In this document: piece after piece, positions 16,759 to 54,349 of the stretch
Layout of the letters: each line of letters starts with the position of its first letter
Numbering within the stretch: position 1 is the stretch's first letter
Assembly: GCA_963748625.1 (NCBI GenBank)
Contig: CAVVJT010000007.1
Span: 640,001 to 704,000, forward strand
Length of the DNA: 64,000 nt
Origin: an uncultured Chloroflexia bacterium
GTDB lineage: Bacteria > Chloroflexota > Limnocylindria > Limnocylindrales > CSP1-4
Direction: 5' to 3'
Notes under the pieces: generated by a model
The model's database searches: none
Told to the model about the DNA's origin: nothing
What the model saw: the letters and a program-made list of their open reading frames with translations, nothing else
Program-made: the position numbers and the translations under genes

Positions 16759-16870
16759 TGATGCGCCTGTGACTCACCCGCGGGGCTAGCGAGCGTGACC
16801 GCGTCGCGAAACCCGACCTTCGCGTCGTGATCGTGCAGGGCCGGGCTGGATCTGATGCGGCGGTGACTCA
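16759..16870 (-). repeat. Repeat family A, solo copy
   Basis: Boxes TGATGCGCCTGTGACTCA (16759) and TGATGCGGCGGTGACTCA (16853), 94 bp apart; core CGCGAAACCCGACCTTCGCG; reverse complement aligns with 21161-21272. Confidence 0.85.
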
Positions 16871-16984
16871 GGCGGGTGGCGGATCAGCCGAGAGGCGGCA
16901 GCAGCGGGGCGCGGGGACACTTCGAGCCGGTCGGCAGTTGGCGCTCGGTCGGTCCGCCGATACGGTCGGGCGCGGAGGTGGCGG

Positions 16985-17656
16985 ATGCTGGCTGTGGTCA
17001 TCGTCGCGGGGCTGGTGGCGGCCGTCGGGTTCGTCGTGATCGCGGCAGGCGGCGTCATCCCCGTGCTCGGTGATCCGATGGCCGCGTGGCGGGAGCCGGC
17101 ATCGTCTCTGGTGCTCCCGGCGCTGCTCCTGCTTGTGAGCACCGGGTTGCTGGTCGTCGGGGGGCTCGGCCGGGTCCGTCGGCGGGGTGCCAGCGGACGG
17201 CGCCAGGCGGTGGTGATCGGGGCCGTCGCGATCTGGCTCGCGGTCGGTGTCGGCGGTCTGGTGGTCCTGGGCCGCGATCTCGTGCTGCCCGGCACCGCGC
17301 GCGTCGAGGGCCTCCCGGGGCAGGCCGAGCCATGGTCGGGCCCGATGGTGTGCCGGCGCTACCGGTGGGGATCGTTCGAGAGCACGGGTCGGTCGGCCGA
17401 AGTCCAAGTGCCGGCATCGGCCACGGGGGGTGAGGTGACGTTCGCCCTGGTGCTGGCCGGCGTGGACGGGGACAACCCGAGCCTCATCGCCGGTGACGCG
17501 AGGTGGGGGTGGTCGACGGGATCCAGCATGTCGATGGCATCGGCGGACATCAGCGACGACGGTCTGCGGGGCACGATCCTCACGCTGCCCACCCCGATCC
17601 TCCACCGGGACGCCGCTCCGTCGATGGTCTCGTTGACCTGGGACTGCCTCGGGTAG
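16985..17656 (+). CDS. Hypothetical membrane protein (3 TM plus C-terminal extracytoplasmic domain)
   Basis: Three hydrophobic segments; C-terminus ends LTWDC, like the LTWEC end of 30231-30959. Confidence 0.5.
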   Translation: MLAVVIVAGLVAAVGFVVIAAGGVIPVLGDPMAAWREPASSLVLPALLLLVSTGLLVVGGLGRVRRRGASGRRQAVVIGAVAIWLAVGVGGLVVLGRDLVLPGTARVEGLPGQAEPWSGPMVCRRYRWGSFESTGRSAEVQVPASATGGEVTFALVLAGVDGDNPSLIAGDARWGWSTGSSMSMASADISDDGLRGTILTLPTPILHRDAAPSMVSLTWDCLG

Positions 17657-17692
17657 CGGTAGGACGACCGGCGCGGTGCGGCAGTGCAGCGC

Positions 17693-17749
17693 GCCCCGCC
17701 TGTGGGGCGAATCCGGACCGCGGCCGCACGGCCTGCGCGCCAAACCCCG
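17693..17749 (+). repeat. Repeat family B, left half (interrupted by IS30)
   Basis: GCCCCGCCTGTGGGGCGAAT...GCCAAACCCCG matches 19876-19932. Confidence 0.85.
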
Positions 17750-18999
17750 GGTGAATTCAGCCGGTCGATGCAACATCACCTCCGGAGGTCGTGTGGCGTA
17801 CTGGAGGTGACGGATGCGGCGACGGAGATCGGCCAGGGGCAAGCTCCGTGACGGGGACATCGCGGAGATCTGGCGGCTGTTCCATGACGGCCTCGGGCCA
17901 AAGGCGATCGCGAGGACCGTCGGCGCCTCGCACCAGGCGGTCGGCCGGGTGATCGCGGCACGCGGCGGCGTGATGCCCGTCGCCCACGCGGTCCTGCCGT
18001 GGAGGCGGTCGGGCCACCGCCTGCGGCTCGCGGACCGGGAGGAGATCAGCCGGGGCCTTGCCGCAGGCGAGTCCTTCCGGCAGATCGCCGGCCGCCTCGG
18101 TCGGGCGGCATCGACGGTCGCCCGGGAGGTCGGCCGCAACGGGGGCCGCGACGGGTACCGGGCCCACGAGGCCCACGAGGCCACCCGGGAGCGCGAGTGC
18201 CGCCCGAAGCCCACGCGCCTCGCCCGCAGCCCGCAGCTGCAGGCCGAGGTCGAGCGGCTGCTCCTCCTGCGCTGGTCGCCCGTCCAGATCGCGAGCCACC
18301 TGCGGCTGGCGCATCCTGCGGACGAGGAGATGCACGTGAGCCACGAGACGATCTACCGCGCGCTCTACATCCAGGGCCGGGGCGAGCTGCGCCGGGAGCT
18401 CGCCGCCTGCCTGCGCACGGGCCGGGCGAGGCGGCGGGCGATGGCCACGCCCGAGGACCGCGGGCGCATGGCGGGCATGGTCCTGATCAGCGAGCGTCCG
18501 GCCGAGATCGAGGACCGGGCGGTCCCCGGACACTGGGAGGGCGACCTGCTCATCGGCCGGGCCCAGGGCTCCGCCGTCGCCACCCTGGTCGAGCGGACGA
18601 CCCGGTACACCATGGTCGCCGCCCTGCCCGGCGGCCGCTCGGCCCCCGAGGTCCGCGACGCCCTGGTCGGGCTGGTCGCCCGGCTCCCCGACCACCTCCG
18701 GCGCTCGCTCACGTGGGACCGCGGGCACGAGATGGCCGAGCACCTGCGGTTCACGGTCGAGACCGGTGTTGCTGTCTACTTCTGCGACCCCTCGAGTCCC
18801 TGGCAGCGCGGCACCAACGAGAACACCAACGGGCTCCTCCGCCAGTACCTGCCCCGCACCATGGACCTGCGCGAGGTCGGCCAGGCGCAGCTCGACGCGA
18901 TCGCCGCCGAGCTCAACGGCAGGCCTCGACAGACGCTCGGCTGGAGGTCACCATCCGAGGTGTTCGCGGAGGCCGTTGCATCGACCGGCTGAATCCGCC
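17750..18999 (+). mobile_element. IS30-family insertion sequence, 1250 bp, about 25-bp terminal IRs, probable 2-bp CG target duplication
   Basis: IRL GGTGAATTCAGCCGGTCGATGCAAC, IRR GTTGCATCGACCGGCTGAATCCGCC; CG at 17748-49 and 19000-01. Confidence 0.92.
17814..18992 (+). CDS. IS30-family DDE transposase
   Basis: HTH LGRAASTVAREV, VSHETIY, GHWEGDL, SLTWDRG.EM, PWQRGTNENTNGLLRQYLP. Confidence 0.95.
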   Translation: MRRRRSARGKLRDGDIAEIWRLFHDGLGPKAIARTVGASHQAVGRVIAARGGVMPVAHAVLPWRRSGHRLRLADREEISRGLAAGESFRQIAGRLGRAASTVAREVGRNGGRDGYRAHEAHEATRERECRPKPTRLARSPQLQAEVERLLLLRWSPVQIASHLRLAHPADEEMHVSHETIYRALYIQGRGELRRELAACLRTGRARRRAMATPEDRGRMAGMVLISERPAEIEDRAVPGHWEGDLLIGRAQGSAVATLVERTTRYTMVAALPGGRSAPEVRDALVGLVARLPDHLRRSLTWDRGHEMAEHLRFTVETGVAVYFCDPSSPWQRGTNENTNGLLRQYLPRTMDLREVGQAQLDAIAAELNGRPRQTLGWRSPSEVFAEAVASTG

Positions 19000-19001
19000 C
19001 G

Positions 19002-19055
19002 ACATTGGCGCCCGGACCACGCTCACGACCCGCCGAAATGCCCCACAGGTGGGGC
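19002..19055 (+). repeat. Repeat family B, right half
   Basis: ...CCACGCTCAC...GCCGAAATGCCCCACAGGTGGGGC matches 19933-19986. Confidence 0.85.
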
Positions 19056-19120
19056 AGCGTGCAGGTAATCGGGGGCCGCGAGGTGGGCCGGAGTGCGGTG
19101 GCGAGACGGCGCGGATGTCG

Positions 19121-19540
19121 TCAGATCGAGCCGGGCGCGGCGACCCAGCGCACCGGCTGGCCCGTCACCGAGGCGATGACGTCGTAGTCGTGGTCGTAGT
19201 GGACGATCATCACCCCATGGCGGGCTGCGACTGCTGCGATGAGGAGATCGGGGATCTTGACCTGGCGGTGGTGCAGCGGCCCTCGGGCAGCCAGCTCACG
19301 GAAGACGCGGCGCGCCTCGTCCCAGTCCGCCGGCTCGGTCCGCAGCCACGGGCAGGCACGCAGGCCCTCCTCCACGGCCTGGAAGTCTGCCCCGTCGCGG
19401 GCGCTCCAGAGCAGCTCCATCGCGACCATGTCGCAGACGGCGATCAGGCCGTCCTCCAGCGCCGGTCCGAACCATGCCAGGCCCGGCTTGCCCTTCCGGG
19501 CCCAGGCCGACGTGTCCGCCAGCTCGAGGCGTTCGTCCAT
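19121..19540 (-). CDS. vapC: VapC PIN-domain toxin
   Basis: ADTSAW, MELL, DLLIAAVA, VHYDHDYD acidic PIN residues. Confidence 0.9.
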   Translation of the reverse strand: MDERLELADTSAWARKGKPGLAWFGPALEDGLIAVCDMVAMELLWSARDGADFQAVEEGLRACPWLRTEPADWDEARRVFRELAARGPLHHRQVKIPDLLIAAVAARHGVMIVHYDHDYDVIASVTGQPVRWVAAPGSI

Positions 19541-19545
19541 GGCCG

Positions 19546-19758
19546 TCAGCGCGGAAGGTCGCGCTGTGCCCGAAGGGTTGGCAGCACATCCTCGAGCTCC
19601 GAGAAGTCACGACGTGCGAGGCCGGCTCGCCGGCGGCGCGCGACGACGTCACGGAGGGCGGCGTGCACCGTTTCGGTGGTCCGCGTGGTGCCGAGCGCCT
19701 CGGCGGCGTCACGCAGCAGGTCGCGATCGAGGTCGAGCGTGGTGTGGGTCCTGGCCAT
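19546..19758 (-). CDS. vapB: VapB ribbon-helix-helix antitoxin
   Basis: MARTHTTLDLDRDLLRDAAEALGTTRTTETVHAALRD, upstream of vapC. Confidence 0.85.
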   Translation of the reverse strand: MARTHTTLDLDRDLLRDAAEALGTTRTTETVHAALRDVVARRRRAGLARRDFSELEDVLPTLRAQRDLPR

Positions 19759-19875
19759 CGGAGGTGCCTCCGCCCGTGCGTTCTCGTGATGCGTGAACTC
19801 TATCACCGCGTCCACGCATCCATCAGGCGATTGATCACGCATTCGGCCCGATGCTCGGTCGGCCACGCAGCGCGC

Positions 19876-19986
19876 GCCCCACCTGTGGGGCGAATTGGGA
19901 TGTCGAACGCAGGGTCTGCGTGCCAAACCCCGGGATGCGCACCCGGCCCACGCTCACAGCGGGCCGAAACGCCCCACAGGTGGGGC
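19876..19986 (+). repeat. Repeat family B, intact copy
   Basis: Boxes GCCCCACCTGTGGGGC (19876) and GCCCCACAGGTGGGGC (19971), 95 bp apart. Confidence 0.85.
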
Positions 19987-20022
19987 AGGTGCGCGATCGG
20001 GGACTAGAGCGCAGGCGCCCGA

Positions 20023-20550
20023 TCAGGCCGGCAGTGACTCCTTCGGCGTCTCGAAGTTGGACGGGACGTCCACCTCGATGCCAGTGCCGGGGATCTCGCG
20101 GACCGGGAACCGGACCAGCGGCTTGGGCGGCGCGCCGGCGAGGACGGTGCCGTCAAGCGCGAACTCGCCCTCGTGGCACGCGCACTCGAACTTGGAGATG
20201 GCGGCCGTCCAGGAGTAGCGGCACAGGCCGTGCGTGCAGCGCGGGTCGTAGGCGACGAGGTCGCCCTCGGCCGTGCGCAGGAGCCAGGTGGAGCCGGGGA
20301 TCCGCTCGCCGTTGGACGCGACGACGCTGAACGGGACTTCCTGCGGGGTGCCGGGGACGAGACTCGCGGGGTCGATGTCGAGGGCGATGGTCTGCGGGGG
20401 TCCCGAACAGGCAGCAAGGACCGCGCCGAGGCCGCCCGAGGCCACGACGGCACCTGCGCCCATGAGGATCAGCATCGATCGTCGCGGGACGGGCGTGGAA
20501 CGCGGATCGAACGCCGGACCCTCCTCGGGCCGGCGGCCTGTGTTGCCCAT
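20023..20550 (-). CDS. Rieske [2Fe-2S] protein, probable Tat lipoprotein
   Basis: PRRSMLIL twin-Arg, VLAAC lipobox, CTHGLC and CACH motifs. Confidence 0.85.
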   Translation of the reverse strand: MGNTGRRPEEGPAFDPRSTPVPRRSMLILMGAGAVVASGGLGAVLAACSGPPQTIALDIDPASLVPGTPQEVPFSVVASNGERIPGSTWLLRTAEGDLVAYDPRCTHGLCRYSWTAAISKFECACHEGEFALDGTVLAGAPPKPLVRFPVREIPGTGIEVDVPSNFETPKESLPA

Positions 20551-20562
20551 GTTCGGGAGAGC

Positions 20563-20952
20563 CTACCCCGAGACCGCGCTCGGCTGCAGGCCGCGATCCT
20601 GGTCGTTGCGCGCAACACCGCTGACAGCCTGGCGGATGGCGGCCAGGAAGTCGTCCGGCTTCGACGCCAGGGACTCCCGCTTGAGGGTCCACGCGCTGGT
20701 GGTGGTGATGTCGACGTCGAGCACGAGGGCCGATCCGGATCGCCGCACGATGTCCGCGGCGTCGATCCTGCCGCCCTCCTCCACCACGATCACGGCGGGC
20801 GCGCTGGCGAGCGCGGCATCGACGGCAGCCGTCTCGCAGACGTCCACGGCCTCGACGATGATGCCGGGTTCGGCGGCCAGCATCCGGCCCAAGCCCTCCC
20901 CCATCAGGGGATGGCTGTACAGGACGAGGACCCTGACGGGCTCCGGTGACAC
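20563..20952 (-). CDS. Stand-alone degenerate receiver-domain protein
   Basis: VRVLVLYSHPLMGEGLGRML...DDFLAAIRQA resembles a NarL receiver but lacks the acidic pocket and phospho-Asp. Confidence 0.55.
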   Translation of the reverse strand: MSPEPVRVLVLYSHPLMGEGLGRMLAAEPGIIVEAVDVCETAAVDAALASAPAVIVVEEGGRIDAADIVRRSGSALVLDVDITTTSAWTLKRESLASKPDDFLAAIRQAVSGVARNDQDRGLQPSAVSG

Positions 20953-21160
20953 GTTCTCCCACCCACTCCACAGCCCGCGACGGGGCCGTGCTCCGATGCT
21001 AGGGGAGGGTCCGATGTCGTCCAATCCGTCGCAGGGCACAGCCGGACCCGCGAATCCCTGTATCCGAAGGGCTACCGGCCCAAGGAATCCGTGCCGAACG
21101 GCGCATCCGGCCGACGGCACCCACCGCGTCGGGACCTCAATCCACCCCCGTTGCCCCGAC

Positions 21161-21272
21161 TGAGTCACGTATGCATCAATTCAGGTCCGGCCCCGCACGA
21201 CCAGGCCGCGAAGGTCGGGTTTCGAGGCCCGGCCACGCACGTACCGGGGCGGATTGAGTCACAGCCGCATCA
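21161..21272 (+). repeat. Repeat family A, copy upstream of the HTH-nuclease gene
   Basis: Boxes TGAGTCACGTATGCATCA (21161) and TGAGTCACAGCCGCATCA (21255), 94 bp apart; core CGCGAAGGTCGGGTTTCG. Confidence 0.85.
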
Positions 21273-21365
21273 AGTTCCCGAAGGTGCTGTCGATGCCACC
21301 AATGTGCGGCATAAGCGCGGCATACGCGCGGTCTAAGTACGACGTGAGCGGACTCCGCTACAACC

Positions 21366-22184
21366 ATGGCCATGGACAGCCGAACCGTGCGACTGGGCGA
21401 GGACGCGACGGTCGGCAGTGTCGCGACGATCATCAAGAACGCCCGCGAACTGACGGGCTGGTCGCAGCGCGAGCTCGCGGGGCGCGCCGGAACATCGCAA
21501 TCAGCGATCTGCCGGCTGGAGTCCGGGAGTGCCTCTGCGGTAGAGATGCTCGTGCTCGGCAAGGTGCTCGACGCGCTCGGACTGGACGCGCAGCTCGTCG
21601 TCGAAGGCCGCCACCTCTTCGACAGGGTGCGCCAGAAGGATGGCGTACACGCGAAGGTCACGGGGTTCGTCGGCCGACGCCTCACGCGGTGGGATTGGCT
21701 GACCGCCGGTGAAGCGCTGATCGGCATCGATCGGCCGCGCGGCTGGATCGACCTTCTGGCCTTCCGGTGGGCCGATCGCGCACTCCTGGTCGAGGAGACC
21801 AAGACAGAGATCCCGGACATGGGCCAACTCCAGCGCAGCCTCGCCTTCTATGAGCGGGAGGCGATGGCGGTGGCACGGGGGTTCGGGTGGGAACCGCGCA
21901 GCGTGAATGTGCTTCTTGTCACCTTGGACAGCGCGGCCATCGCCCGGCGCCTCGCAGACAACCGGGACCTCGTCAGACTCGCCTTCCCCGCGCCGGTCTC
22001 GGATGTTCTCCGCTGGCTCGAGCACCCGACTGCGGCGCGGCCGCGAGAGTGGGCCATCGGCACGTGCGACCCAGCGTCACGGAGGGTGACGTGGCTCCGG
22101 CCAACGACGCTCGGCTCGCGTCGCACGCCTCCGGCCTATGCGAACTACGCGGATGCGGCGGCCCGCCTGCTCCTGCCGGGGTGA
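21366..22184 (+). CDS. XRE-family HTH fused to a PD-(D/E)XK restriction-endonuclease-like domain
   Basis: ARELTGWSQRELAGRAGTSQSAICRLESG; GWIDLLAF...LLVEETKT (D...ExK). Confidence 0.75.
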   Translation: MAMDSRTVRLGEDATVGSVATIIKNARELTGWSQRELAGRAGTSQSAICRLESGSASAVEMLVLGKVLDALGLDAQLVVEGRHLFDRVRQKDGVHAKVTGFVGRRLTRWDWLTAGEALIGIDRPRGWIDLLAFRWADRALLVEETKTEIPDMGQLQRSLAFYEREAMAVARGFGWEPRSVNVLLVTLDSAAIARRLADNRDLVRLAFPAPVSDVLRWLEHPTAARPREWAIGTCDPASRRVTWLRPTTLGSRRTPPAYANYADAAARLLLPG

Positions 22185-22247
22185 ACTAACCGCGTGCGCA
22201 GGGCCCGAGCGGTGGTCGCGGGGCGGGTCCCGCTCGCGTCGGCTGGC

Positions 22248-22359
22248 TGAGTCGCCTGCGACTCACCGCGTGAGATCCACGCAGGGGTGCGCCCCCGAAG
22301 TCGAGGTTCGCGTGTTGGGCTGTGCGGGGACGAGGGCCGAATGAGTCCGGCGCGACTCA
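22248..22359 (-). repeat. Repeat family A, inverted copy downstream of the HTH-nuclease gene
   Basis: Boxes TGAGTCGCCTGCGACTCA (22248) and TGAGTCCGGCGCGACTCA (22342), 94 bp apart; core CGAAGTCGAGGTTCGCG. Confidence 0.8.
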
Positions 22360-22449
22360 GGCGCCGGGGCGAGCGTGCCCAGACCGACTCAGGCGCCACG
22401 GCGCGGCGCGAGGAATCCGCGCCCGAGGCGCAGGCCGCGAGACCCCGCG

Positions 22450-23145
22450 TCAGCCCCGGGGGTTGTCCTGGCTCGTCATCCCCTGGCGCACCGCGTAGGC
22501 CGCGGCCTGCACCCGGTTCGTGAGGTGGAGCTTCTCGAGGGCGTTGTGGACGTGGTTCTTGACCGTGCCCTCGGTGATCGTCAGCTCGTTGGCGATCTCC
22601 TTGTTGGACATCCCCGCAGCGACGAGCTGGAGGATCTCCGACTCACGCCGGGTGAGGACGGTGTCCTCGGGCGCCAGCGTCGAGCCAGATCCGCGCGTGG
22701 GGATCCCGCCGGTGCGCAGGGCCTCCAGCAGCTTGGTCGCGACCGCGGGTGCGATGGGCGACTCACCGCGCATGACACCGCGCAGGTCCTCGAACAGCTG
22801 CTCCGGCCGGACGTTCTTGAGGAGATACCCGTTGGCGCCGGCCTTGATCGCGTTGAACAGGTCGTCGTCGTCCTCGGACACCGTGAGCATCACGATGGGG
22901 GTCGTGAAGCCGGCCGACCGGATCGCGATCACCCCGTCGACGCCGTCGGCATCGGGCATGTTCACGTCCATCACGACGAGGTCCGGCTTGAACTGGCGGA
23001 CCTTCTCCAGGGCGTCACGGCCGTTCTCGCCCTCGCCCACGACCGTCATGTCGAACTGGCCGCCGATCAGGGTCGCCAGTGCCCTCCGGAAGAGCGGCTG
23101 GTCGTCAACGAGCAGCACCCTGATTTTCGGCGGAAGGTGTTCCAA
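22450..23145 (-). CDS. NarL/LuxR-family response regulator
   Basis: VLLVDDQ, VVMDVNMP, GYLLK, LTRRESEILQLVAAGMSNKEIA; probable TTG start. Confidence 0.92.
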   Translation of the reverse strand: MEHLPPKIRVLLVDDQPLFRRALATLIGGQFDMTVVGEGENGRDALEKVRQFKPDLVVMDVNMPDADGVDGVIAIRSAGFTTPIVMLTVSEDDDDLFNAIKAGANGYLLKNVRPEQLFEDLRGVMRGESPIAPAVATKLLEALRTGGIPTRGSGSTLAPEDTVLTRRESEILQLVAAGMSNKEIANELTITEGTVKNHVHNALEKLHLTNRVQAAAYAVRQGMTSQDNPRG

Positions 23146-24913: not shown

Positions 24914-24929
24914 GTGTGGGGGTCGCTCA

Positions 24930-25132: not shown

Positions 25133-25286
25133 AGCCTGCGCACCGATCGCGCCCACTGTGCAGCGCCGTCGCTGGATGCGCGATCGATGCGCAGCTCAGG
25201 CGCCGGCTCGGGTCGAACTCGCCACGGGCTGCGCGCTCATCAGACACCCAGCGACGTGAGTGCCTGGTGTGCGCGACTGATGCGCA
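25133..25286 (+). repeat. Repeat family C, copy 1
   Basis: First 54 bp identical to 26151-26204; remainder colinear; TGCGC-N7-GCGCA-like boxes at 25137, 25177, 25230, 25270. Confidence 0.85.
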
Positions 25287-25375
25287 CGGCTCGCGGCCCG
25301 GGGTTGTGGGTCGCAGCTCGGGGGTTGTGCACAGGCGAATTGGTCCGGGATAAGCGGGACGTGCCACAGTCCGCC

Positions 25376-26032
25376 ATGGGAACTCACCAACGAGCCGTGG
25401 ACCTCGCCGCCGAGGATGCACGGATGATCCTCGAACGGCTGCGCAAAGAGGTCCGCGACACGCGGATTGCCCTCGGGCTCAGCCAGGTCGAGCTCGCCGC
25501 CGTGTCCGGGGTATCGCGCTGGAAGGTGGGGCGGTTCGAGGCTGGCGACGCCGGCGCCATTCCGCTCGCGGACCTGTGCGCGTTGCTGCGTGGGGTCGGA
25601 CTGGCGCCGTATGTGAACACCGCCCCCACCGGGGTGCGGGTCCGCGACGGCGCCTCGCTGCGGATCCTCGATCGCTTCGCGGAGGTCGTGGCATCACCCC
25701 TGCGACTCCCGCGTGAGGTGCTCCTCCCTGCACCGGGCGAGCTGCGCGCCTGGGACGCCGCTGTCATGGCGGAGCGGCAGCGTGCCTTCGTGGAGGTCAT
25801 CTCGAAGTTGGGCGACGTGCAGGCGCTGGCCCGATACCTGGCGATCAAGCTGCGCGACGATGGCCGCAGCCAGACGCTCATCCTGGTTGTCGGGCGGACC
25901 GCGCACAACCGGGAGGTGCTTGCAGCCCACCGCGAGGCGCTTCGCCTGGCGTTCCCGCTCGACGGGGCGGCCATCGCACGAGCGCTGCGGTCGGGACGTC
26001 TGCCAGCGGCCAGCGGGATCATCGTCGTGTGA
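25376..26032 (+). CDS. XRE-family HTH fused to a degenerate PD-(D/E)XK-like domain
   Basis: TRIALGLSQVELAAVSGVSRWKVGRFEAG; RAWDAAV...FVEVISKLGDVQAL; C-terminal LRLAFP, compared with VRLAFP in 21366-22184. Confidence 0.7.
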   Translation: MGTHQRAVDLAAEDARMILERLRKEVRDTRIALGLSQVELAAVSGVSRWKVGRFEAGDAGAIPLADLCALLRGVGLAPYVNTAPTGVRVRDGASLRILDRFAEVVASPLRLPREVLLPAPGELRAWDAAVMAERQRAFVEVISKLGDVQALARYLAIKLRDDGRSQTLILVVGRTAHNREVLAAHREALRLAFPLDGAAIARALRSGRLPAASGIIVV

Positions 26033-26103
26033 GCTCGGCAGTCCGCCGGCCTGGCGCCGGCTTTCCGCTGGGTGTGCGCCGGGCCCCCGCCGGGAGTCCC
26101 CCA

Positions 26104-26145
26104 GCCCCCGGCCCCCGGCCCCCGGCCCCCGGCCCCCGGCCCCCG
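26104..26145 (+). repeat. Perfect heptamer tandem repeat (GCCCCCG)x6
   Basis: Read directly; six G5 runs on the minus strand. Confidence 0.9.
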
Positions 26146-26150: not shown

Positions 26151-26304
26151 AGCCTGCGCACCGATCGCGCCCACTGTGCAGCGCCGTCGCTGGATGCGCG
26201 ATCGGCACGCAGCCCAGGCGCTGCGAGACGGCCGCGACCGTCCAGGCTGCGCATGGCTCAGACAACCAGCGACGTGACCGCACGGTGTGCCTGCGGTGCG
26301 CGCA
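26151..26304 (+). repeat. Repeat family C, copy 2 (direct orientation)
   Basis: Offset by 1018 bp from copy 1, with boxes at the same relative positions. Confidence 0.85.
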
Positions 26305-26402
26305 GACGAGCGCCGCGCGCAGACGAGCGGTGCGCGCAGGCCGGCGAGATCAGGCGCGGGCCGGCGAGATCAGGCGCGCCGGCCGGACGGGCGCCCGGGC
26401 GT

Positions 26403-40480: not shown

Positions 40481-40524
40481 CCTCGGGCGCCGGGGGCTGA
40501 TCCCCGGGCGCCTGGGCGGGCGCT

Positions 40525-40637
40525 TGAGTCATCACCGCATCAGTTCGGCCTGCTGCGTGCGATGGTCGCGGGCGGAAGGTCGACTTCAGGTGCTGACCCA
40601 CGCACGGTGGTAGCGGATCTGATGCACAGCCGAATTG
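40525..40637 (+). repeat. Repeat family A, diverged solo copy
   Basis: TGAGTCATCACCGCATCA (40525), core GAAGGTCGACTTC, CCACGCACG, degenerate box TGATGCACAGCCGAATTG (40620), 95 bp apart. Confidence 0.65.
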
Positions 40638-40674
40638 CGACGCCGGCGAGCCCCCGACCGGGGCTACAAGGGGG

Positions 40675-40734
40675 TTTACGCGCGCCGTCGGCCGGAGTAT
40701 GGTTACTCATGCGAGCGGTTATCTCTCATATGAG
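40675..40734 (+). promoter_or_regulatory. Promoter with paired operators for the E1/E2 operon
   Basis: TTTACG-17bp-TATGGT, then CTCATGCGAG (40706) and CTCATATGAG (40725), 19 bp apart. Confidence 0.65.
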
Positions 40735-40781
40735 CATCGAGAGTGTGCCGCTCGCCCAACCACAGAAGGACGAAGCCGGCA

Positions 40782-43088
40782 ATGACGCAGACGCAGGACC
40801 CCGCCCAGCGTGAGCAGGTCTACCACTCCGACCATCGCCCGGACTTCACGCCGTTCGTGAAGTCGGCCGGGACGATCAGGGGCTTCACGTACGCGGGCAA
40901 CCTCGCGTCCGAGCTCGAGGCAGGCACCATCACGCAGCCCGAGGCGCTCGAGCTGCTCGACGACATGCTCGCCATCCGCGAGCTCGAGGAGATGATCGTC
41001 CGCCTCCGCTCCGGCGGCTACGACGCACTCCCCGGCTACGACTACCGCGGCCCCACGCACGTCTCCATCGGCCAGGAGGGTGCGGCGGTTGGCGCGAGCT
41101 CCGTCCTGCGCACCGACGACAACATCACCAGCTCCCACCGCGGCCACGGCGACGCCATCGCCAAGGGCTTCTCCGCCCTGCGCAAGATGAGCGACGTCCA
41201 GCTCGCCGTCCGCACCGGCCGCACGGGCACCCGCGAGGAGCTCCTCGGCGCCGCCCTCGAGGACCACGTCTTCAAGACCATCGCGGAGCTGTTCGGCAAG
41301 GAGGACGGCTACAACAAGGGCCGCGGCGGCGGCATGCACATCGCCGACTACTCCACTGGCAACCTGGGGGCCAACGCCATCGTGGGCGGGTCCGTGCCGA
41401 TCGCCACGGGCGCCGCCATGGCCGCGCGCTACGAGGGCTCGGATCGGGTCGTCTGCTGCTTCGCGGGCGACGGGTCGTATGCCAACGGCGTGGTGCTCGA
41501 GTCCCTCAACTGGGCCGCCCAGGTCCAGTGGACCAACCACCTGGCCGAAACGCCGTACGGCCTGCCGGCGATCTACGTCATCCAGAACAACCACTACGGC
41601 ATGACCGGCCGCGCCGACGACGAGGTCATGGGCGTCCAGTTCCTCGCCCAGCGTGCTGCGGGCTTCGCCGAGAACACGATGCACGCCGAGGTCGTCAACG
41701 GCATGGACGTGCTCGCCGTGCGCGAGGCCGTCCAGCGCGCCGCCGCGATCTGCCGCCGTGGCGAGGGCCCGGTCCTGCTCGAGGTGAGCACGTACCGCTA
41801 CTACGGCCACTCGCTCTCCGACCCGCGCAACGAGTACCGGACCCGGGACGAGGAGGCCGCGTGGCGCGCCATCGACCCGATCGCACAGCTCCGCGAGCAG
41901 CTCCTCGCGGCCGGCGTCGACGCCGGAACCGTCGAGGCCGTCGAACAGGGCGCCACCGCCCGCAACGCCCGCGCCGCCCAGCGCGCAGCCGTCTCGCCCG
42001 AGCCCGCCGCCTCCGCCGTGCTCGACTACATGTACACCGACACCACCTCGGCCGGCACCGAGGTCGCGTCCCCCGCCCTCCTGGCCCCGCTTCCCGAGGC
42101 CAAGCGCGACGCCAACGGCCAGATCAGCTACAAGGACGCCCTGCGCGAGGCGCTCGCCCAGGAGATGGTCCGCGACGCCCGTGTCATCCACTACGGCGAG
42201 GACGTGGCCGACTACGGCGGCGCCTTCAAGCTGACCAAGGGCCTGCTGGAGAGCTTCGGACGCAACCGCGTCTTCAACACGCCGATCTCCGAAGCCGCCA
42301 TCTGCGGCACCGCGGTTGGCGCGGCGATCGCCGGCACCCGCCCGGTCGTCGAGTTGATGTACATGGACTTCGCGCTGATGGCGTCCGACCAGATCGCCAA
42401 CCAGGCCGCGAAGTGGCACTTCATGTCGGGCGGCCAGATCGAGGTCCCGCTCGTGATCCGCGCCTCGGTCGGCGCGGGCAAGGGCTACGGCGGCCAGCAC
42501 AGCCAGAGCCTCGAGTCGATTTTCACCCACACCCCCGGCCTCTACGTCGTCTACCCGTCCACCGCGGCTGACGCGAAGGGCCTTCTCGCCTCCTCGATCC
42601 GGACCAACAACCCGGTCCTCTTCGTGGAGAGCCAGGGCCTCTACACCACCAAGGGCGTCGTGCCCGAGGGCGAGCATCTCGTCGAGATCGGCACGGCCGC
42701 GGTCCGGCGCGAAGGCGACGGGGTCACGCTCGTGTCCTGGGGCCCGGCGGTCCTGGACTGCCTCAAGGCCGCTGAGACGCTGGCCGCCGAGCACGGCCTG
42801 GAGGCCGAGGTCATCGACCTGCGCTCGCTGGTCCCGCTCGATCTCGAGACCGTCCTGACGTCCGTCCGCAAGACCGGGCGCGCCGTGGTGGTCGCCCAGG
42901 CGATCCTGCGCGGCTCATTCGTGAACGAGATCGTGGCCTCGATCCAGCTGGAGGCGTTCGACGACCTCGATGCGCCGGTGGGCCGCGTGGGCGCCGTCCC
43001 GGGCATCTCGCCCCAGAGCGAGATCCTCGAGGCAGCGTTCCTGCCCAACGCGGGCGACATCGTCAGCGCCGTCCTGGCGATCGGCTGA
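40782..43088 (+). CDS. Fused E1 alpha/beta TPP-dependent 2-oxoacid/acetoin dehydrogenase
   Basis: HVSIGQEG, GRGGGMH, GDGSYANG..N, YRYYGHS; GEDV, NTPISEAAI, GGQHSQS, IDLRSLVPLD. Confidence 0.92.
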   Translation: MTQTQDPAQREQVYHSDHRPDFTPFVKSAGTIRGFTYAGNLASELEAGTITQPEALELLDDMLAIRELEEMIVRLRSGGYDALPGYDYRGPTHVSIGQEGAAVGASSVLRTDDNITSSHRGHGDAIAKGFSALRKMSDVQLAVRTGRTGTREELLGAALEDHVFKTIAELFGKEDGYNKGRGGGMHIADYSTGNLGANAIVGGSVPIATGAAMAARYEGSDRVVCCFAGDGSYANGVVLESLNWAAQVQWTNHLAETPYGLPAIYVIQNNHYGMTGRADDEVMGVQFLAQRAAGFAENTMHAEVVNGMDVLAVREAVQRAAAICRRGEGPVLLEVSTYRYYGHSLSDPRNEYRTRDEEAAWRAIDPIAQLREQLLAAGVDAGTVEAVEQGATARNARAAQRAAVSPEPAASAVLDYMYTDTTSAGTEVASPALLAPLPEAKRDANGQISYKDALREALAQEMVRDARVIHYGEDVADYGGAFKLTKGLLESFGRNRVFNTPISEAAICGTAVGAAIAGTRPVVELMYMDFALMASDQIANQAAKWHFMSGGQIEVPLVIRASVGAGKGYGGQHSQSLESIFTHTPGLYVVYPSTAADAKGLLASSIRTNNPVLFVESQGLYTTKGVVPEGEHLVEIGTAAVRREGDGVTLVSWGPAVLDCLKAAETLAAEHGLEAEVIDLRSLVPLDLETVLTSVRKTGRAVVVAQAILRGSFVNEIVASIQLEAFDDLDAPVGRVGAVPGISPQSEILEAAFLPNAGDIVSAVLAIG

Positions 43089-46804: not shown

Positions 46805-47089
46805 CGGCCGACCCTCCCGTTGATGAAGTAGTCCTGCTACCGGATTGTGCAAGAAGTCTGCACTTGATGTTCGCTGTTGGCCAAGCGAGCATGCGCGCAA
46901 GCGAGAAGCTGCCCACCGTCCCGGTTCCGGTCGCCTCAGGCCTCCGGACCCGCACCTCCGCGGCCCCCCACTGGCCCGGTCCGTCGCCCCCCCCGACGGG
47001 CCGGGCCCTCCTCGTTCCCGCGGGGCGATCGACGATCCGGCCACGGGCGGGCGTCACGCGGGCCGGCCGGCGGTGCGGTCAGCGGCCGG

Positions 47090-47650: not shown

Positions 47651-47764
47651 CGGCCGATCCTACAGGGCAGGGCAGGCACGGAGGTCGGGCTCCCGCCACG
47701 GAGGTCGCCGGTCCCCCGGGTGCTACCCTCCGGCACCACTGCGATCCCGCACGAGAGGACCTCC

Positions 47765-49726: not shown

Positions 49727-49756
49727 CCGGCACAGCCGGCCGAGGGAGGATCGAGG

Positions 49757-50602
49757 ATGACGTTTTCCATCGTCGCGCGGGACCCGGAGACCGGGGACGT
49801 CGGCATCGCGATCGCCTCCAAGGTGGTGGCCGTTGGGGCGGTTGCTCCGTTTGCGAAGGCGCTGGTGGGGGCGGTGGCGTCACAGTCGGCGCCCAACGTG
49901 ACCTACGGGCCGGACGGCCTCGCCCGCCTGGCCGCCGGGGAGCACCCCAAGGCGATCCTCCAGGCGCTCACCGCGCCCGACAGCATGGCCGCCATGCGCC
50001 AGGTGGGCATCGTGGACGCGACCGGGCGGGCGGCGAGCTACACCGGCGCCGAGTGCGTCGAGTGGGCCGGGGGCCGCGTCGGGCCGGGCGTTGCCGCGCA
50101 AGGCAACATGCTCACAGGCCCCGCGGTCGTGGACGCCCTGATCGACTCCTACCTCGCGGCCACCGGAAGCTTCCCCGAGCGGCTGCTCGCAGCGCTCCGC
50201 GCGGGTGACGCGGCCGGCGGGGACAAGCGCGGGCGCCAGTCGGCCGCGCTCCTCGTCCGCCGCGAGAAGGGCGGGATCGCGGGGCTCGACGACCGCTGGA
50301 TCGACCTCCGCGTGGATGACCACACGGATCCGACCGCGGAGCTTGCGCGCCTGTACGACCTGCTGGCGAAGCAGAACAACCCGCTGACGGCGGAGAACCT
50401 GCCCAAGGTCGCCTCGATGCTCGTGGGCACCGTGGCCAACTCCATCAAGCAGGCGATGTCGGGCGAGCCCAAGCCGGAGCCGCTGCTCGTGGCCTGGGAG
50501 CCGGAGGCACCCGCGGGCGACGACGCGCAGGCCCGGCGCGCACCGGCCGGGAGCGCACCGGCGGCGGGCGGGACGGCCGACGACGGCTCCATCGGCGGCT
50601 GA
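49757..50602 (+). CDS. DUF1028 family Ntn-hydrolase-like protein
   Basis: MTFSIVARD, AQGNML, GGDKRGRQSAALLV, DLRVDDH. Confidence 0.85.
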   Translation: MTFSIVARDPETGDVGIAIASKVVAVGAVAPFAKALVGAVASQSAPNVTYGPDGLARLAAGEHPKAILQALTAPDSMAAMRQVGIVDATGRAASYTGAECVEWAGGRVGPGVAAQGNMLTGPAVVDALIDSYLAATGSFPERLLAALRAGDAAGGDKRGRQSAALLVRREKGGIAGLDDRWIDLRVDDHTDPTAELARLYDLLAKQNNPLTAENLPKVASMLVGTVANSIKQAMSGEPKPEPLLVAWEPEAPAGDDAQARRAPAGSAPAAGGTADDGSIGG

Positions 50603-50610
50603 CCACCGCC

Positions 50611-51663
50611 GTGAGACTGCCCTCCCTCGGAGCCCGTCGCGACCACGCCGAGCGCTACCTCTTCCTGGTCGTCGCCGCCTTCGCAATCAGCGTGGCCGTG
50701 ACCCGCGTCTTCCTCGCCGCCACGGGTTACCCGAAGGTGGGCGGTGGCGGGCTGCACATCGCCCACATGCTCTGGGGCGGCCTGCTGCTCGTGGTCGCGT
50801 CGATCCTGCCACTGATGCTGGTGGGCAGCCGGGTACTCGTCGTGTCCGCGATCGCGGGCGGCGTGGGCGTGGGCCTGTTCATCGACGAGGTCGGCAAGTT
50901 CATCACCGAGAACAACAACTACTTCTTCGCCCCGGCGGCCCCGCTCATCTACGGCGCGGTCCTGCTCATGGTCTCGCTGCTGGTCATCGTGTCCCGACGG
51001 GGAGGCACCAGCCGCGACGCGCTCCAGGCGGCCGTCGAGGCAGCCCGCGAGAACGTTGACGGCCGCCTCACCCGCGAGCACCGGGACGAGGTCCTTGCAG
51101 GCCTCGAGCGGGTCCAGGAGGGTGGGGATCCAGCCCTCGCGTCGCTCGCGTCGCGATACACGGAGCTGCTGGTCTCACCAGAGGTCGAGGCCCGGCTCGG
51201 CACCACCGGCTGGCTGGACAACGGCGGACCCCAACGCCTCATCGAGCGCCTGCTGCCCGTCCGGCTCGAGCGCGCGCTCGTCTACCTGGGGCTGGGCTAC
51301 ACCGCCCTTGGCGCCGTCGTCTCGGCGCTGCTGCTCGTCGCCCTCCTCGGCTACGGGCCGCTGCCGCCGGTCGCGGACAACGGGCCCGTCGAGTTCCCGT
51401 CGGAGCCGTTCTGGACCTACGCGCTGCTCGCGGTCGCGACCGGGGTTGGCATCGCATCGGGGATCGCGGTGGTCCTGCTGGCGACCGGGCGCGCGCGCAG
51501 GGGCCTGCGCGTCGGAGCGGGGGCGACGCTCGTCAACCTGGTCGCCGGCGGCCTGCTCACCTTCTATGTGCAGCAGTTCGCGGCACTCGGCTCCACGGTC
51601 CTGCACCTCGCCATCCTTGGCCTCCTTCTCGACATGGGCCGGCGACTGGAGCAGCGGAGGTGA
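50611..51663 (+). CDS. Hypothetical multi-pass membrane protein
   Basis: HIAHMLWGG, GLFIDEVGKFIT...YFF; about 8 TM. Confidence 0.7.
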   Translation: MRLPSLGARRDHAERYLFLVVAAFAISVAVTRVFLAATGYPKVGGGGLHIAHMLWGGLLLVVASILPLMLVGSRVLVVSAIAGGVGVGLFIDEVGKFITENNNYFFAPAAPLIYGAVLLMVSLLVIVSRRGGTSRDALQAAVEAARENVDGRLTREHRDEVLAGLERVQEGGDPALASLASRYTELLVSPEVEARLGTTGWLDNGGPQRLIERLLPVRLERALVYLGLGYTALGAVVSALLLVALLGYGPLPPVADNGPVEFPSEPFWTYALLAVATGVGIASGIAVVLLATGRARRGLRVGAGATLVNLVAGGLLTFYVQQFAALGSTVLHLAILGLLLDMGRRLEQRR

Positions 51664-51997
51664 GGCGCCGGTGAGGCGCCCGCCGCTGCCCGCGGTGCTC
51701 CGGGAGGTGATCGACGACCGGGCAGGGCCCGGACCGGAGTCCAGAAGGGGGCAGAAGCGGGGCCGGGACGCACCGGATTCGGGTGCAGGTTGCGGTTTGG
51801 ATGCGCCCCGGCGTGCGTCGAGGCGAGGCAAGTTGGACAGTTCGCGCGACAGGCGGGCAAAGATGGCGTATTCTGCCGCGACGCCCCACCGTCGGGCGCA
51901 AGCACCAGCACGGCCGACTCGATCCCTCCCTCCCGGTCTCCGCAGAGGACTCGATCGCGGAAACCGGCACAAGACCACGAGGAGTGGATCAACCTTC

Positions 51998-52348
51998 ATG
52001 AACGTCGACCGGACGCTCACCTGCAGCGACTGCAACCAGTCGTTCACCTTCACTGTCAGCGAGCAGGACTTCTACGCCCAGAAGGGCTTCTCGGAGCCCC
52101 GCCGCTGCCCCAACTGCCGTGCCGCCCGCAAGGCGCAGCGCGGTGACTCCGGTGGTGGCAGCTACTCCAGCGGTGGCGGCTACTCCAGCGGCTCCAGCTT
52201 CGGTAGCGGCTACGGCTCCTCGCGCGGTCCGCGCGAGATGTTCACCGCAACCTGCTCGGCATGCGGCCAGGAGACCCAGGTCCCCTTCCGCCCCACGTCC
52301 GGCAAGCCGGTCTACTGCAGCGCCTGCTTCGCACAGCGCCGCGCCTGA
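51998..52348 (+). CDS. Double zinc-ribbon protein (CxxC-x17-CxxC type)
   Basis: CSDC...EQDFY..KGF.EPRRCPNC, Gly/Ser linker, CSAC...VPFRP...PVYCSAC. Confidence 0.88.
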   Translation: MNVDRTLTCSDCNQSFTFTVSEQDFYAQKGFSEPRRCPNCRAARKAQRGDSGGGSYSSGGGYSSGSSFGSGYGSSRGPREMFTATCSACGQETQVPFRPTSGKPVYCSACFAQRRA

Positions 52349-52392
52349 CCGCCGCCCGGGACGTTGACGTCCCGGATCCGCGCGCAACGACT

Positions 52393-52420
52393 ACGGCCCC
52401 CGGTCACCCGGGGGCCGTTT
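52393..52420 (+). terminator. Intrinsic terminator-like hairpin
   Basis: ACGGCCCCCGG-TCAC-CCGGGGGCCGT followed by TT; between convergent genes. Confidence 0.7.
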
Positions 52421-52562
52421 CGATTCACTGTGGGGTCGTGCGCCAGGCGGCCGGGATCGATCTCCTCCAACGCGATCCCGGCCGCGCGGCGCACGACCCG
52501 CGCACGGCCGCAGGCTGCCGCCGGCGCTCAGCCCTCGCCGACCAGCAGCCCTTGCCGGCCGC

Positions 52563-54008
52563 TTAGCCTTCGCCGGCCAGCAGCTCGAGCGCCTTGAGCA
52601 GCTGCGCGTCCCCCGCATCGACCAGCTGCTGCCAGGTGAGCCCCTTGACGTCATCGGGCTGGAGCGGTGCGACCGTGTCATCGAGCGTGACGGTCACGTC
52701 CGGCGCCAGTCCCTCGTGCCAGATCGGCCGGCCGTTGCGGGTGAGCCAGCGCTCCACGCCGATCCGCAGCGACGAGCCGTCCTTGAGGTCGTACTGGCCC
52801 AGGACGGTGCCGGTGCCGAACGTCTTCTCGCCCACGACCTTGCCGCGGCCCGCATCCTGAATCGCCCCGGACACGATCTCCGCCGAGCTGGCCGAGTCGC
52901 CGTCCGCGAGGACGATCAGTGGGATGTCGGTGGCCAGACCGCCCGGCTCGACCTTGTTGTCCTTGCGCTCCCCGCTGCGGTCGAACGCCTGGAACACGAC
53001 ACCGTCGGGCACGAACTGGCTCGCGACGGTGAGTGCCTCGCCGACATACCCACCGGGGTTGCCGCGCAGGTCGAAGACGATCGCCGTCGCGCCGGCCTCC
53101 TTCGCCTCGGTGATCGCCTTCTTGAGGGCGTCGCCTGCCCCGTTGGCGAACTGGTCCAGCCGGATCATCGCCACCGTGCGGTCCGGGATCATGGCCCAGG
53201 ACACGAGCGGCAGGTCGAACTTGCGGCGGGTGATGGTGACATCGAAGTCCGCCGACCCGGCACGGCCGATGGTCAGGGTGACGTCCTCGCCCTCCGGGCC
53301 GCGGACGCGCGAGATCGTCTGGTCGATGGCCTCGTCGGTGGTTGCCTTGCCGTCCACTTCGAGGATGCGGTCGCCCCGCTGAAGACCGGCCTCCTCGGCG
53401 GGCGTGTTCGGGATCACGGAGAAGACGTACGGCACGCCGTCCTTCTCCTCCTCGTTGACGCGGATGCCGACACCCACGAACGTGCCCGACAGCGACTCGT
53501 TGACGGCCTTGGACTCCTCGGCCGTGAGGAACGAAGTGTGGCCCTCGTCGCCGACGGCCTCCACAAGACCGCGGATCGCCGCGTACGCGAGCTCCTGGCT
53601 GTCCAGGTTCTCGGCATCGACGTAGTGCTCCTGGATGTCGTTCCAGGCCTCCTCGATCAGGGCCAGCTCCGCGTCGGGGTCACCGACGGCGAAGGACGGG
53701 CTGGTCGTGGCGATGGTGCCTGCTGCCGCTGCCGTGCCGGCCCGGCCGACGACGACGCCGCCGGCGAACAGGGTGATGGCAAGCACGGGGGCCAGCACGA
53801 GGGCGATGGCCTTGCCCAGGCCCTTGCCCCCGGTGGATGGAGCCGGAGTCGCGACCCCGACCGGTTCGCCAGCCGGGGTGGGCGTCGCGAGGGCCGGAGA
53901 CGCGAGGACCGGCGTGGGCGGAGTCAGCGTGGGCGGAGCCGGCGGCTCGATGGGTGCGGGGGCCGGTCCCTCGAGCGGGGACGCGTGATCGGGGGTCGGT
54001 TCGGTCAT
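52563..54008 (-). CDS. ctpA: S41-family C-terminal processing protease with PDZ domain
   Basis: GVGI, PAEEAGL, DLRGNPGG, SASSAEI, GEKTFGTG. Confidence 0.88.
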   Translation of the reverse strand: MTEPTPDHASPLEGPAPAPIEPPAPPTLTPPTPVLASPALATPTPAGEPVGVATPAPSTGGKGLGKAIALVLAPVLAITLFAGGVVVGRAGTAAAAGTIATTSPSFAVGDPDAELALIEEAWNDIQEHYVDAENLDSQELAYAAIRGLVEAVGDEGHTSFLTAEESKAVNESLSGTFVGVGIRVNEEEKDGVPYVFSVIPNTPAEEAGLQRGDRILEVDGKATTDEAIDQTISRVRGPEGEDVTLTIGRAGSADFDVTITRRKFDLPLVSWAMIPDRTVAMIRLDQFANGAGDALKKAITEAKEAGATAIVFDLRGNPGGYVGEALTVASQFVPDGVVFQAFDRSGERKDNKVEPGGLATDIPLIVLADGDSASSAEIVSGAIQDAGRGKVVGEKTFGTGTVLGQYDLKDGSSLRIGVERWLTRNGRPIWHEGLAPDVTVTLDDTVAPLQPDDVKGLTWQQLVDAGDAQLLKALELLAGEG

Positions 54009-54156
54009 GGTTCTCAGGGCTGCAAAGGATGGCCGAGACATGGTCGGCGGTTGACAGGATGCCTTGTCCACGCTTCAAGCGCGGTGGACGGATGGTGAAG
54101 TTGCCTTAGCCGAACCCGACTGTGGCCGCGCGGGCGGGCACGTGCAGGCGCGGATT

Positions 54157-54349
54157 CCATGCCCATGCGGATGAACGACCGTTCCATCCCTGCGCGGATG
54201 GATTCGGCCAACAATCCCCGTGGTGAGATCCGACCCGGGCGTACGGGGGTCACGCACCGAACCTCGAGTTCGGGCACCGGGCCCTGCGTGCAGGGCGCCG
54301 AAACCATCCGCAGGGGGATTGATTGGCGATTCGATCCCCGTGGGAATGA
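54157..54349. repeat. Repeat family D: five 18-bp boxes around a central hairpin
   Basis: CCATCC-N6-GGATGG-like boxes at 54157, 54184, 54212, 54304, 54332; core CCGAACCTCGAGTTCGG at 54257-54273. Confidence 0.6.

Follow-up and report, generated by a model that had tools for sequence, protein, structure and literature searches.

A dispersed palindromic element and the gene it flanks

The DNA considered here is a 64,000-nt window (positions 640001–704000 of contig C7 in genome G000; coordinates given without a contig refer to this whole stretch) from a bacterium of soil or freshwater, whose 4.63-Mb assembly comprises 10 contigs with ~71% G+C and is 98.3% complete. Named homologs assign it to the Limnocylindria group within uncultivated Chloroflexota. 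The focus of this study is a cassette at 21093..22449 (no strand assigned), made up of a leader, an element, a gene, a second element, and a trailer. The gene (21366..22184, plus strand) encodes a 272-aa protein with an XRE helix-turn-helix (HTH) domain at residues ~13–78 and a predicted PD-(D/E)xK nuclease-fold domain at residues ~94–246. The elements are repeats with two palindromic boxes each: one of box type A2 lies upstream of the gene (21157..21276, minus strand), and an A2-like one lies downstream (22244..22363, plus strand), its boxes TGAGTCGCCTGCGACTCA and TGAGTCCGGCGCGACTCA having a spacing of 94 bp. Further copies are found in other parts of the window, namely an A2 element at 16755..16874 (plus strand; boxes TGATGCGCCTGTGACTCA at 16759–16776 and TGATGCGGCGGTGACTCA at 16853–16870, spacing 94), an intact B1 element at 19871..19991 (no strand assigned; boxes CGCCCCACCTGTGGGGCG and CGCCCCACAGGTGGGGCA, 95 bp apart), an A2-like element at 40521..40641 (minus strand) in a 301-bp spacer, and a D-type element with ATCC..GGAT boxes at 54202..54328 (plus strand), with further D-type outer boxes on either side. 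Another B1 element is interrupted at its centre, its left half at 17692..17751 and its right half at 18998..19057 (both plus strand) being separated by an IS30-family insertion sequence (17752..18997, plus strand) that does not belong to the system and whose transposase (17814–18992) has HTH_38 and rve domains. An earlier, sequence-only reading of this stretch had located family A boxes 94 bp apart at 16759/16853 and at 22248/22342 (TGAGTC..GACTCA) and family B boxes (GCCCCAC..GTGGGGC) 95 bp apart at 19876/19971, and all of them are found at these places.

A genome-wide search for pairs of identical short hairpins 85–105 bp apart recovered the same design elsewhere in the genome with other box words, and eight copies that could be aligned without gaps were used as seeds for a hidden Markov model (HMM; one iteration, locus cut-off E<1e-3 in the 4.63-Mb genome). 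This model detected 126 loci. Contigs C7, C10, and C4 account for 47, 46, and 18 of them, and C1, C6, and C9 lack any; eight of the matches lie in the window, two of these being the halves of the interrupted copy. Near-full copies were present at 111 loci, and five clusters took in 109 of them: B1 (48 copies, box CGCCCC..GGGGCG), A (24 copies, TGACTC n6 GAGTCA), B2 (18 copies, CGCCCCA n4 TGGGGCG), D (15 copies, ATCC..GGAT), and A2 (4 copies and one outlier, TGATGC n6 GACTCA). Sixty copies from all five subfamilies align over 127 columns, only 2 of which are mostly gaps. The proposal that families A to D form one superfamily thus holds for A, B, and D, which are subfamilies (B1, B2, A, A2, and D) of one ~115-bp intergenic repeat (~135 bp with outer flank motifs included), and fails for C, which is described below.

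One register fits the 60 aligned copies: every box is a dyad of 18 bp in which two half-sites of 6 bp enclose a centre of 6 bp (columns 8–25 and 104–121), and each copy carries two such boxes in inverted orientation, 94–95 bp apart from start to start, around an interior of fixed length. Among the 81 of 109 clustered copies that passed the box-pair score, the spacing was 95 bp in 64 and 94 bp in 11 (for B1, 95 bp in 44/46), i.e., 75/81 copies adhere to the constrained geometry that had been suggested for them. A model-free scan for 18-nt boxes (outer 6+6 bases at least 5/6 self-complementary, inverted copy matching at least 14/18 at 60–140 bp downstream) returned 109 pairs in the real genome, of which 36 fell at 93–97 bp (23 having a distance of exactly 95) and 73 were distributed across the 76 distances outside this range, compared to 34, 32, and 35 pairs in all in three dinucleotide-preserving genome shuffles, with 0, 1, and 1 at 93–97 bp. 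The spacing is therefore enriched over shuffled sequence, as had been anticipated. Of the 35 distinct real pairs at 93–97 bp, HMM loci contain 23, the copy at 22248 in the window accounts for another, and several of the remaining ones are tandem repeats whose period is 93 or 96 bp. Taken as a dyad, each box had 85.9% of cells paired (73.4% in shuffles); taken as inverted copies, the two boxes of a copy had 87.3% of cells paired (70.7% in shuffles), with both-side changes in 129 cells versus 57.8, and the non-palindromic box centres had 62.7% (52.5% in shuffles), all three values being reached by 0/500 shuffles.

Half-sites were 75–92% identical inside subfamilies and ~53% identical on average between subfamily consensus sequences, B1 and B2 having theirs in common. 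For the interior arms and the central 20 columns, identity was 51–69% inside subfamilies and 49% between consensus sequences. The common core that the sequence-only reading had proposed (roughly GAA-n-n-CG-n-n-n-TT) does exist, but its conservation does not exceed that of the remaining interior (between-subfamily identity of 0.49 for both), and it is the length of the interior that is strictly kept. Occurrences of the box words fell mostly inside elements (B1 83/88, B2 45/53, A 21/22, A2 7/8, D 18/26). In addition, many B1 copies carry an outer inverted motif, with TCCTGCr preceding box 1 by ~3–9 nt and yGCAGGA following box 2 (for instance at 19860–19870 and 19992–20002 in the window), indicating either an element longer than its boxes or a preference for such a target.

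Based on our own codon-usage gene call, 117 of 126 element loci are intergenic. Convergent spacers contained 46 elements compared to 21.1 expected from intergenic bases, and divergent spacers 16 compared to 28.8 (chi-square p 8e-9), a distribution that counts against promoter operators. This enrichment downstream of genes and the palindromic boxes would suit structured RNAs or terminators with end hairpins and a core hairpin, and RNAalifold indeed drew a full-length hairpin for every subfamily, with the B1 consensus showing G-T instead of A-C at some symmetric positions. However, no Rfam match was obtained in the window (Rfam 15, gathering score), symmetric interior columns of the 48 B1 copies paired at shuffled level (in the variable arms, z was close to 0 or negative), and an all-against-all column scan found stacked covarying pairs in none of the subfamilies. 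Under DNA parameters, the folding of interiors did not surpass that of dinucleotide shuffles (mean z: B1 −0.02, A −0.87, B2 −0.43), the z of −2.4 to −3.1 for whole elements being due to the boxes, and B1 copies in co-directional spacers had no strand preference relative to the genes (14 same, 9 opposite). The lack of covariation and of an interior fold signal indicates that conserved motifs, each held at its position on double-stranded DNA, give rise to the symmetry. As far as sequence can tell, the element is a double-stranded platform with a predicted protein-binding role and not an RNA, and we regard a function as structured RNA or terminator as very improbable.

The interrupted B1 copy raises another alternative, in which the elements would be ordinary MITEs (miniature inverted-repeat transposable elements) of a DDE transposon, e.g., the IS30-family element that sits between the half-elements (17692–19057), with the terminal boxes behaving as inverted terminal repeats. 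This IS30-family element is 1,246 bp long, single-copy, and encodes a 392-aa transposase, but it has its own, different inverted repeats of ~24 bp (GAATTCAGCCGGTCGATGCAAC), is accompanied by a CCC duplication, and is placed exactly in the central motif of the B1 element, whose core it splits, all of which points to an insertion into the element. No larger unit bounded by boxes and no target-site duplication were seen, and we attach next to no probability to a MITE origin. The insertion is reminiscent of the insertion sequences reported to use REP (repetitive extragenic palindromic) sequences as targets (PMC1525189).

A hot spot at G000:C7:601000–663000, which ends inside the window, contains ~15 element copies in 62 kb, versus ~1 per 37 kb genome-wide, along with the IS30 element, toxin–antitoxin-like pairs, and two partner genes. 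Between the B1 copies and halves of the window lies a two-gene pair (19121–19815) encoding a PIN-domain protein and an 89-aa open reading frame (ORF), and a similar small pair (74 and 139 aa) at G000:C7:12176–12810 is bracketed by B1 elements or element halves. Both look like toxin–antitoxin-like cassettes bracketed by repeats.

The partner protein and the boxes beside its genes

Three genes of 271–272 aa lie between two nearby elements in the genome, and two of the three are mutual paralogs. In the window protein, HTH_3 matches residues 23–75 (34.4 bits against a gathering cut-off of 23), and in an AlphaFold model with a mean predicted local distance difference test score of 92.8 the XRE five-helix fold is supported by structure matches with Z up to 10.7 (C.AhdI, ClgR, HipB). 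Beyond the HTH, the best Foldseek match of the model was the R2 retrotransposon endonuclease domain (9dou_A, E 7e-4), followed by PfoI, BstEII, PspGI, and EndoMS (E 7e-4 to 9e-3). VIA-align of residues 94–246 gave middling Z values (Upx 8.4, XisH-like 2okf 8.3, AF1548 7.9, NucS 7.8, Can2 7.5), with all matches being restriction-endonuclease-fold proteins. Residues E116, D129 (GWIDLL), E144, and K146 (EETK) are invariant in a 47-sequence alignment, and this E/D/E-K set is one that we take to be the PD-(D/E)xK pattern. By modeled fold and residue pattern, the C-terminal domain belongs to the PD-(D/E)xK superfamily and is predicted to be catalytic. No Pfam, NCBIfam, or PADLOC model covered it, a sequence profile search of the PDB matched the HTH alone, and matches in the protein atlas were Chloroflexota clusters without a name. 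Overall, 326 of the scored candidates belong to the family at E≤1e-5, and they are named solely ‘XRE-family regulator’. Full-length relatives in species genomes came from Chloroflexota metagenome-assembled genomes in 17/17 cases, with 40 more loci from metagenomes, and many family members are on metagenome contigs of 1.1–3 kb. A 223-aa ORF at 16985–17656, considered as a relative of the partner protein, was ruled out (hhalign probability 0.1%).

A protein with this domain composition could also be a restriction-like or defence nuclease, the boxes then being recognition sites that are tolerated or protected in the host. The nuclease fold is like that of the type IIP enzymes PfoI, BstEII, and PspGI, the HTH resembles controller proteins of restriction-modification (R-M) systems, and PADLOC gives a weak capH-like HTH match. 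Its matches are however limited to the HTH, and at the window locus, where six proteins beside the gene were scanned, no methyltransferase domain was found, the neighbors of the gene being a Rieske protein, hypothetical proteins, and a two-component pair. Moreover, the sites are not free-standing but embedded in a conserved 115-bp architecture, and they flank the gene itself. A defence role thus appears improbable.

A tblastn search with the window protein identified three close paralogs (52–58% identical) and one distant one (33%), and for all four close family copies in the genome (4/4), window copy included, the flanking elements are of one box type, which is a different one for each copy. 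The window copy (21366–22184) lies between A2 elements (21157–21276 and 22244–22363), the paralog at C10:1357579–1358397 between A elements (1357408–1357522 and 1358501–1358615), and the paralog at C10:449623–450393 between B2 elements (449334–449444 and 450490–450603), and the paralog at C7:636321–636896 has a B1 element on one side only (635929–636042). The expectation that paralogous proteins each come with their own box type is thereby supported in this genome, the recognition of that box by its protein being predicted. A nuclease domain in the protein, more than 100 dispersed copies, the separate status of family C, and a D subfamily with no partner in the assembly all go beyond the sequence-only reading.

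The pairing extends to relatives. With the HMM, elements were found directly before and after the gene at several loci, e.g., at 2739–2853 and 3813–3927 of L064 around a gene at 3001–3780, and an architecture scan added further box types adjoining the gene (GGCAC/GTGCC, GATCG/GGATC, CATCC/GGATG, CATTC/GAATG, and AAGTC/GACTT). Among 41 loci with at least 250 nt on either side, 17 had a flank-to-flank repeat and 15 an architecture match (22 in union), compared to 2/16 for a control in which the upstream flank was matched to a piece 1.2–1.65 kb past the stop. Distant homologs (37–48% identity) mostly lacked flanking repeats. The comparison of HTH and adjacent box that had been suggested earlier gave a positive result: across 16 loci, Hamming distance over 11 recognition-helix residues correlated with half-site consensus distance (Mantel r 0.45, p 0.0002, 5,000 permutations), compared to r 0.03 (p 0.43) for the 15 remaining residues of the HTH. 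The loci are related to each other and the association is correlative; it would fit a recognition helix that reads the box.

Distribution among relatives and the proposed repeat–enzyme partnership

We next consider the occurrence of elements and protein across related genomes. A covariance model built from the 60-copy alignment, with at most 113 candidates scored per genome, detected elements in 10/18 same-genus genomes and 0/12 genomes of the neighboring family. The close protein (E<1e-80) was present in 12/30 genomes, 9 of which also had elements, a co-occurrence with a one-sided Fisher p of 1.3e-4 over these 30 related genomes and 0.03 inside the genus. Genes flanking the window cassette are syntenic throughout the genus, and the site between them exists as insertion/deletion alleles in three states: empty in G036, G013, G041, and G034 (39–62-bp spacer, no element at E≤1 with filters off), occupied by a solo element without the gene in G006 (L197:200–324) and G042 (L202:133–259), and occupied by the full element–gene–element cassette in G000, G008, G014, and G016. 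In the alignment of empty sites, the conserved left flank extends up to CCTGTATCCGAGGGGCTA and is followed 10–20 nt on by the stop of the response regulator. Boxes of the orthologous cassettes are TGATGC..GACTCA in G000, TGATCG..GGTTCA in G008 and G016, and GATCC..GGATCG in G014, and their recognition helices read SQSAIC, SQASIC, SQTTVC, and SQASVS. At a second site, the spacer holding the 40521–40641 element is 301 bp long here versus ~25–95 bp in at least 13 syntenic relatives. Even the best-matching public sequencing runs contained no more than 0.18 of the sampled words, and their contigs, being short and of low depth, gave no trustworthy joint at an element end; one joint from 19056 to 20017 had 34 other letters between its sides and a depth of 2.2.

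Two stretches beside these sites are of interest in their own right. The intergenic region at ~21025–21092 (CGATGCTAGG ... CCAATCCGTCGCCCGGCACA ... CCTGTATCCGAGGGGCTA), upstream of a minus-strand gene (20563–21024), is conserved in five aligned same-genus genomes and might correspond to a leader RNA or to a promoter region. In the expanded spacer, the 40521 element is followed at 40650–40781 by a lower-G+C stretch (GGTTACTCATGCGAGCGGTTATCTCTCATATGAGCATCGAGAGTG) just upstream of the gene at 40782–43088; this stretch is not found in relatives.

We consider it fairly likely that the box types serve as cognate sites, each for one HTH-nuclease paralog, and that repeat and protein form a partnership of the kind known from REPINs and REP-associated tyrosine transposases (RAYTs), built on an unrelated enzyme and with binding, cleavage, and mobility as its predicted activities. 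HTH dimers would bind each 18-bp box as double-stranded DNA, the operators of the P22 c2 and 434 repressors being of a size similar to these dyads. Two dimers could then bridge the boxes, which lie on one face of the DNA ~nine helical turns apart, and so position the nuclease domains. By analogy with RAYTs and REPINs, the protein would maintain, and probably copy or move, its own elements. Since most copies have no adjoining HTH gene, it would do so in trans. The boxes flanking the partner gene probably also serve in its autoregulation.

Several observations weigh against this partnership. Within-cluster identity is 62–72%, which makes the copies old, and no target-site duplication was seen by eye among 109 copies. 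Nor was any insertion boundary located exactly. Near-identical pairs of copies, considered as fresh transpositions, were rejected as segmental duplicates since their flanks are common too, and the exact insertion ends at 40521 were not readable because the relatives’ spacers are too diverged. The B1 partner (G000:C7:636321–636941) has a frame change after FPGDV, so that the gene is either broken (a pseudogene) or mis-sequenced through an assembly error, and B1 is the largest subfamily (48 copies), still with well-kept boxes. D boxes are likewise well kept, and no D partner was found in the assembly. Among relatives, L152, L153, and L156 have a partner of the D type. Boxes of the orthologous cassettes differ strongly and recognition helices only subtly, indicating that the recognition ‘code’ is not simple. 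The co-occurrence is imperfect, with the protein but no detected elements in G002, G009, and G018, and one weak element match (E 7.5e-4) in G015 among the 18 genomes without the protein, and the genomes compared, with at most 113 candidates scored in each, are kin and not independent. Finally, a PD-(D/E)xK nuclease is not known to have a strand-transfer chemistry when it acts alone.

Some of these points would be expected if the elements were instead fixed chromosomal binding platforms (decoy, nucleoid-organizing, or regulatory) whose spread is ancient and has ended, with the nuclease domain serving in repair, resolution, or oligomerization. The age of the copies, the absence of target-site duplications and fresh insertions among those seen, interior motifs held at fixed positions without pairing, and B1 and D boxes conserved despite a broken or missing partner all fit such platforms. 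On the other hand, the elements are patchy in one genus, with empty, solo, and full alleles at a single site, they are mostly downstream of genes and not at promoters, and the catalytic residues are invariant. Many homologs are found on contigs of 1.1–3 kb, as would fit assemblies that often break at repeats. Fixed platforms are accordingly an unlikely explanation, albeit one with some weight.

Compared to known systems, the proposed partnership most resembles that of REPINs, i.e., REP doublets, with RAYTs (Bertels & Rainey 2011, PMC3116915; RAREFAN, 10.1101/2022.05.22.493013). Both have short palindromic units in inverted orientation at the ends of a ~100-bp extragenic element with a fixed-length spacer, tens to hundreds of copies, and several families per genome, each with a single-copy enzyme gene adjoining its repeats. 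Both are also old populations, with orthologous cassettes at one locus suggesting largely vertical inheritance. The differences are an XRE HTH with a PD-(D/E)xK nuclease instead of a HUH Y1 transposase, boxes built as 6-6-6 dyads that would suit an HTH dimer on double-stranded DNA, and a host from the phylum Chloroflexota. REPIN spacer arms are described as a long hairpin with compensatory changes (PMC3116915), whereas the spacer arms here show neither pairing nor compensatory changes. Y1/RAYT (PF01797) had 0 matches in this 98.3% complete genome. Since the Y1 enzyme and the hairpin spacer are both missing, the system would work like REPIN–RAYT without being a member of it.

Other systems share individual features. 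BIME-1/RIP elements of Escherichia coli consist of two inverted REPs around a site for integration host factor (IHF), and they and the present elements have in common two inverted palindromic units around a conserved central motif, a length of ~100 bp, and an intergenic position; the partner protein is different and the sequences are unrelated, and IHF binding by the central motif is not known here. A restriction-endonuclease fold in a mobile element is known from TnsA, the PD-(D/E)xK nuclease of Tn7, and from the R2 endonuclease (9dou_A, 8iby_C), whose domain was the top Foldseek match (E 7e-4). TnsA and the R2 endonuclease work with a second enzyme for joining or copying (TnsB or a reverse transcriptase), and such a partner was not seen beside the window gene. 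Phage 434/P22-type repressors and R-M controllers (1y7y, 2r1j, 1per) have the same N-terminal fold (Z 8.8–10.7), and their dyad sites are about as large as the boxes here, the outer half-sites being conserved and the centre variable. These proteins are however small and nuclease-free, and their operators are located at promoters and not in more than 100 dispersed structured repeats.

For the pairing of such repeats with an HTH-nuclease, full-text literature searches returned no description, with subscription-only papers and supplements outside the scope of the search. New are the co-resident subfamilies with one geometry, the correlation between recognition helix and half-site, the genus-wide co-occurrence, and the three allelic states at one locus. 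To our knowledge, REP/REPIN–RAYT is the one well-studied case of a long-lived, mostly vertical repeat population kept by a single-copy enzyme. We tentatively suggest, as a possibility that we would not yet call probable, that the present system is a second, independently evolved repeat–enzyme symbiosis, in which an HTH-guided restriction-fold nuclease mobilizes 115-bp palindromic elements with four orthogonal co-evolving specificities. If so, a look-alike with an unrelated enzyme in a distant phylum would mean that this lifestyle evolved more than once, would raise the question of how a restriction-fold nuclease propagates DNA, and would represent in effect a new type of transposase together with a natural library of matched HTH–DNA recognition pairs. 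The four matched protein/box pairs, with many more in metagenomes, provide material for testing the reading of a 6-bp half-site by an XRE recognition helix, and are candidate modules for orthogonal binding or cutting of DNA. As regards annotation, genes named ‘XRE-family regulator’, several hundred in number, would carry a previously unrecognised predicted nuclease domain.

A second repeat–protein pair and other features of the window

Family C, which had been grouped with the others, was rejected as a member of the 95-bp architecture: its repeats lack this architecture and are invisible to the HMM. They lie upstream (25133..25290, plus strand) and downstream (26151..26300, plus strand) of a second HTH gene (25397..26032, plus strand), which encodes P0121, a 211-aa HTH_31 protein with three paralogs in the genome. 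Two 71-nt repeats (25133–25203 and 26151–26221) are 94% identical and extend to ~140–150 nt, and at least 10 partial relatives occur in the genome. P0121 aligned to the partner family with an hhalign probability of 94.4% (E 8e-8, 189 columns), and family C with P0121 looks like a second, distantly related protein–repeat pair.

Short tandem arrays are located at 26100–26145, 26300–26385, and 54385–54425, and include (GGCCCCC)x6, doubled 15- to 19-nt units (gcgcgcagacgagcg, gccggcgagatcaggcgcg), and (GGCGT/GGCAT)n runs adjoining repeat copies. A tRNA scan returned nothing. Outside the window, G000:C7:828335–828450 is a nearly pure A+T stretch (TTTTATATATAAAAATT...) in this 71% G+C genome, and may be an assembly artefact or foreign DNA. 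Within the window, positions 6400–11800 contain three paralogous segments at ~2.37 kb spacing, with 73–83% identity across 100–130 nt pieces (repeat families D3, D4, D6, D7, and D9).

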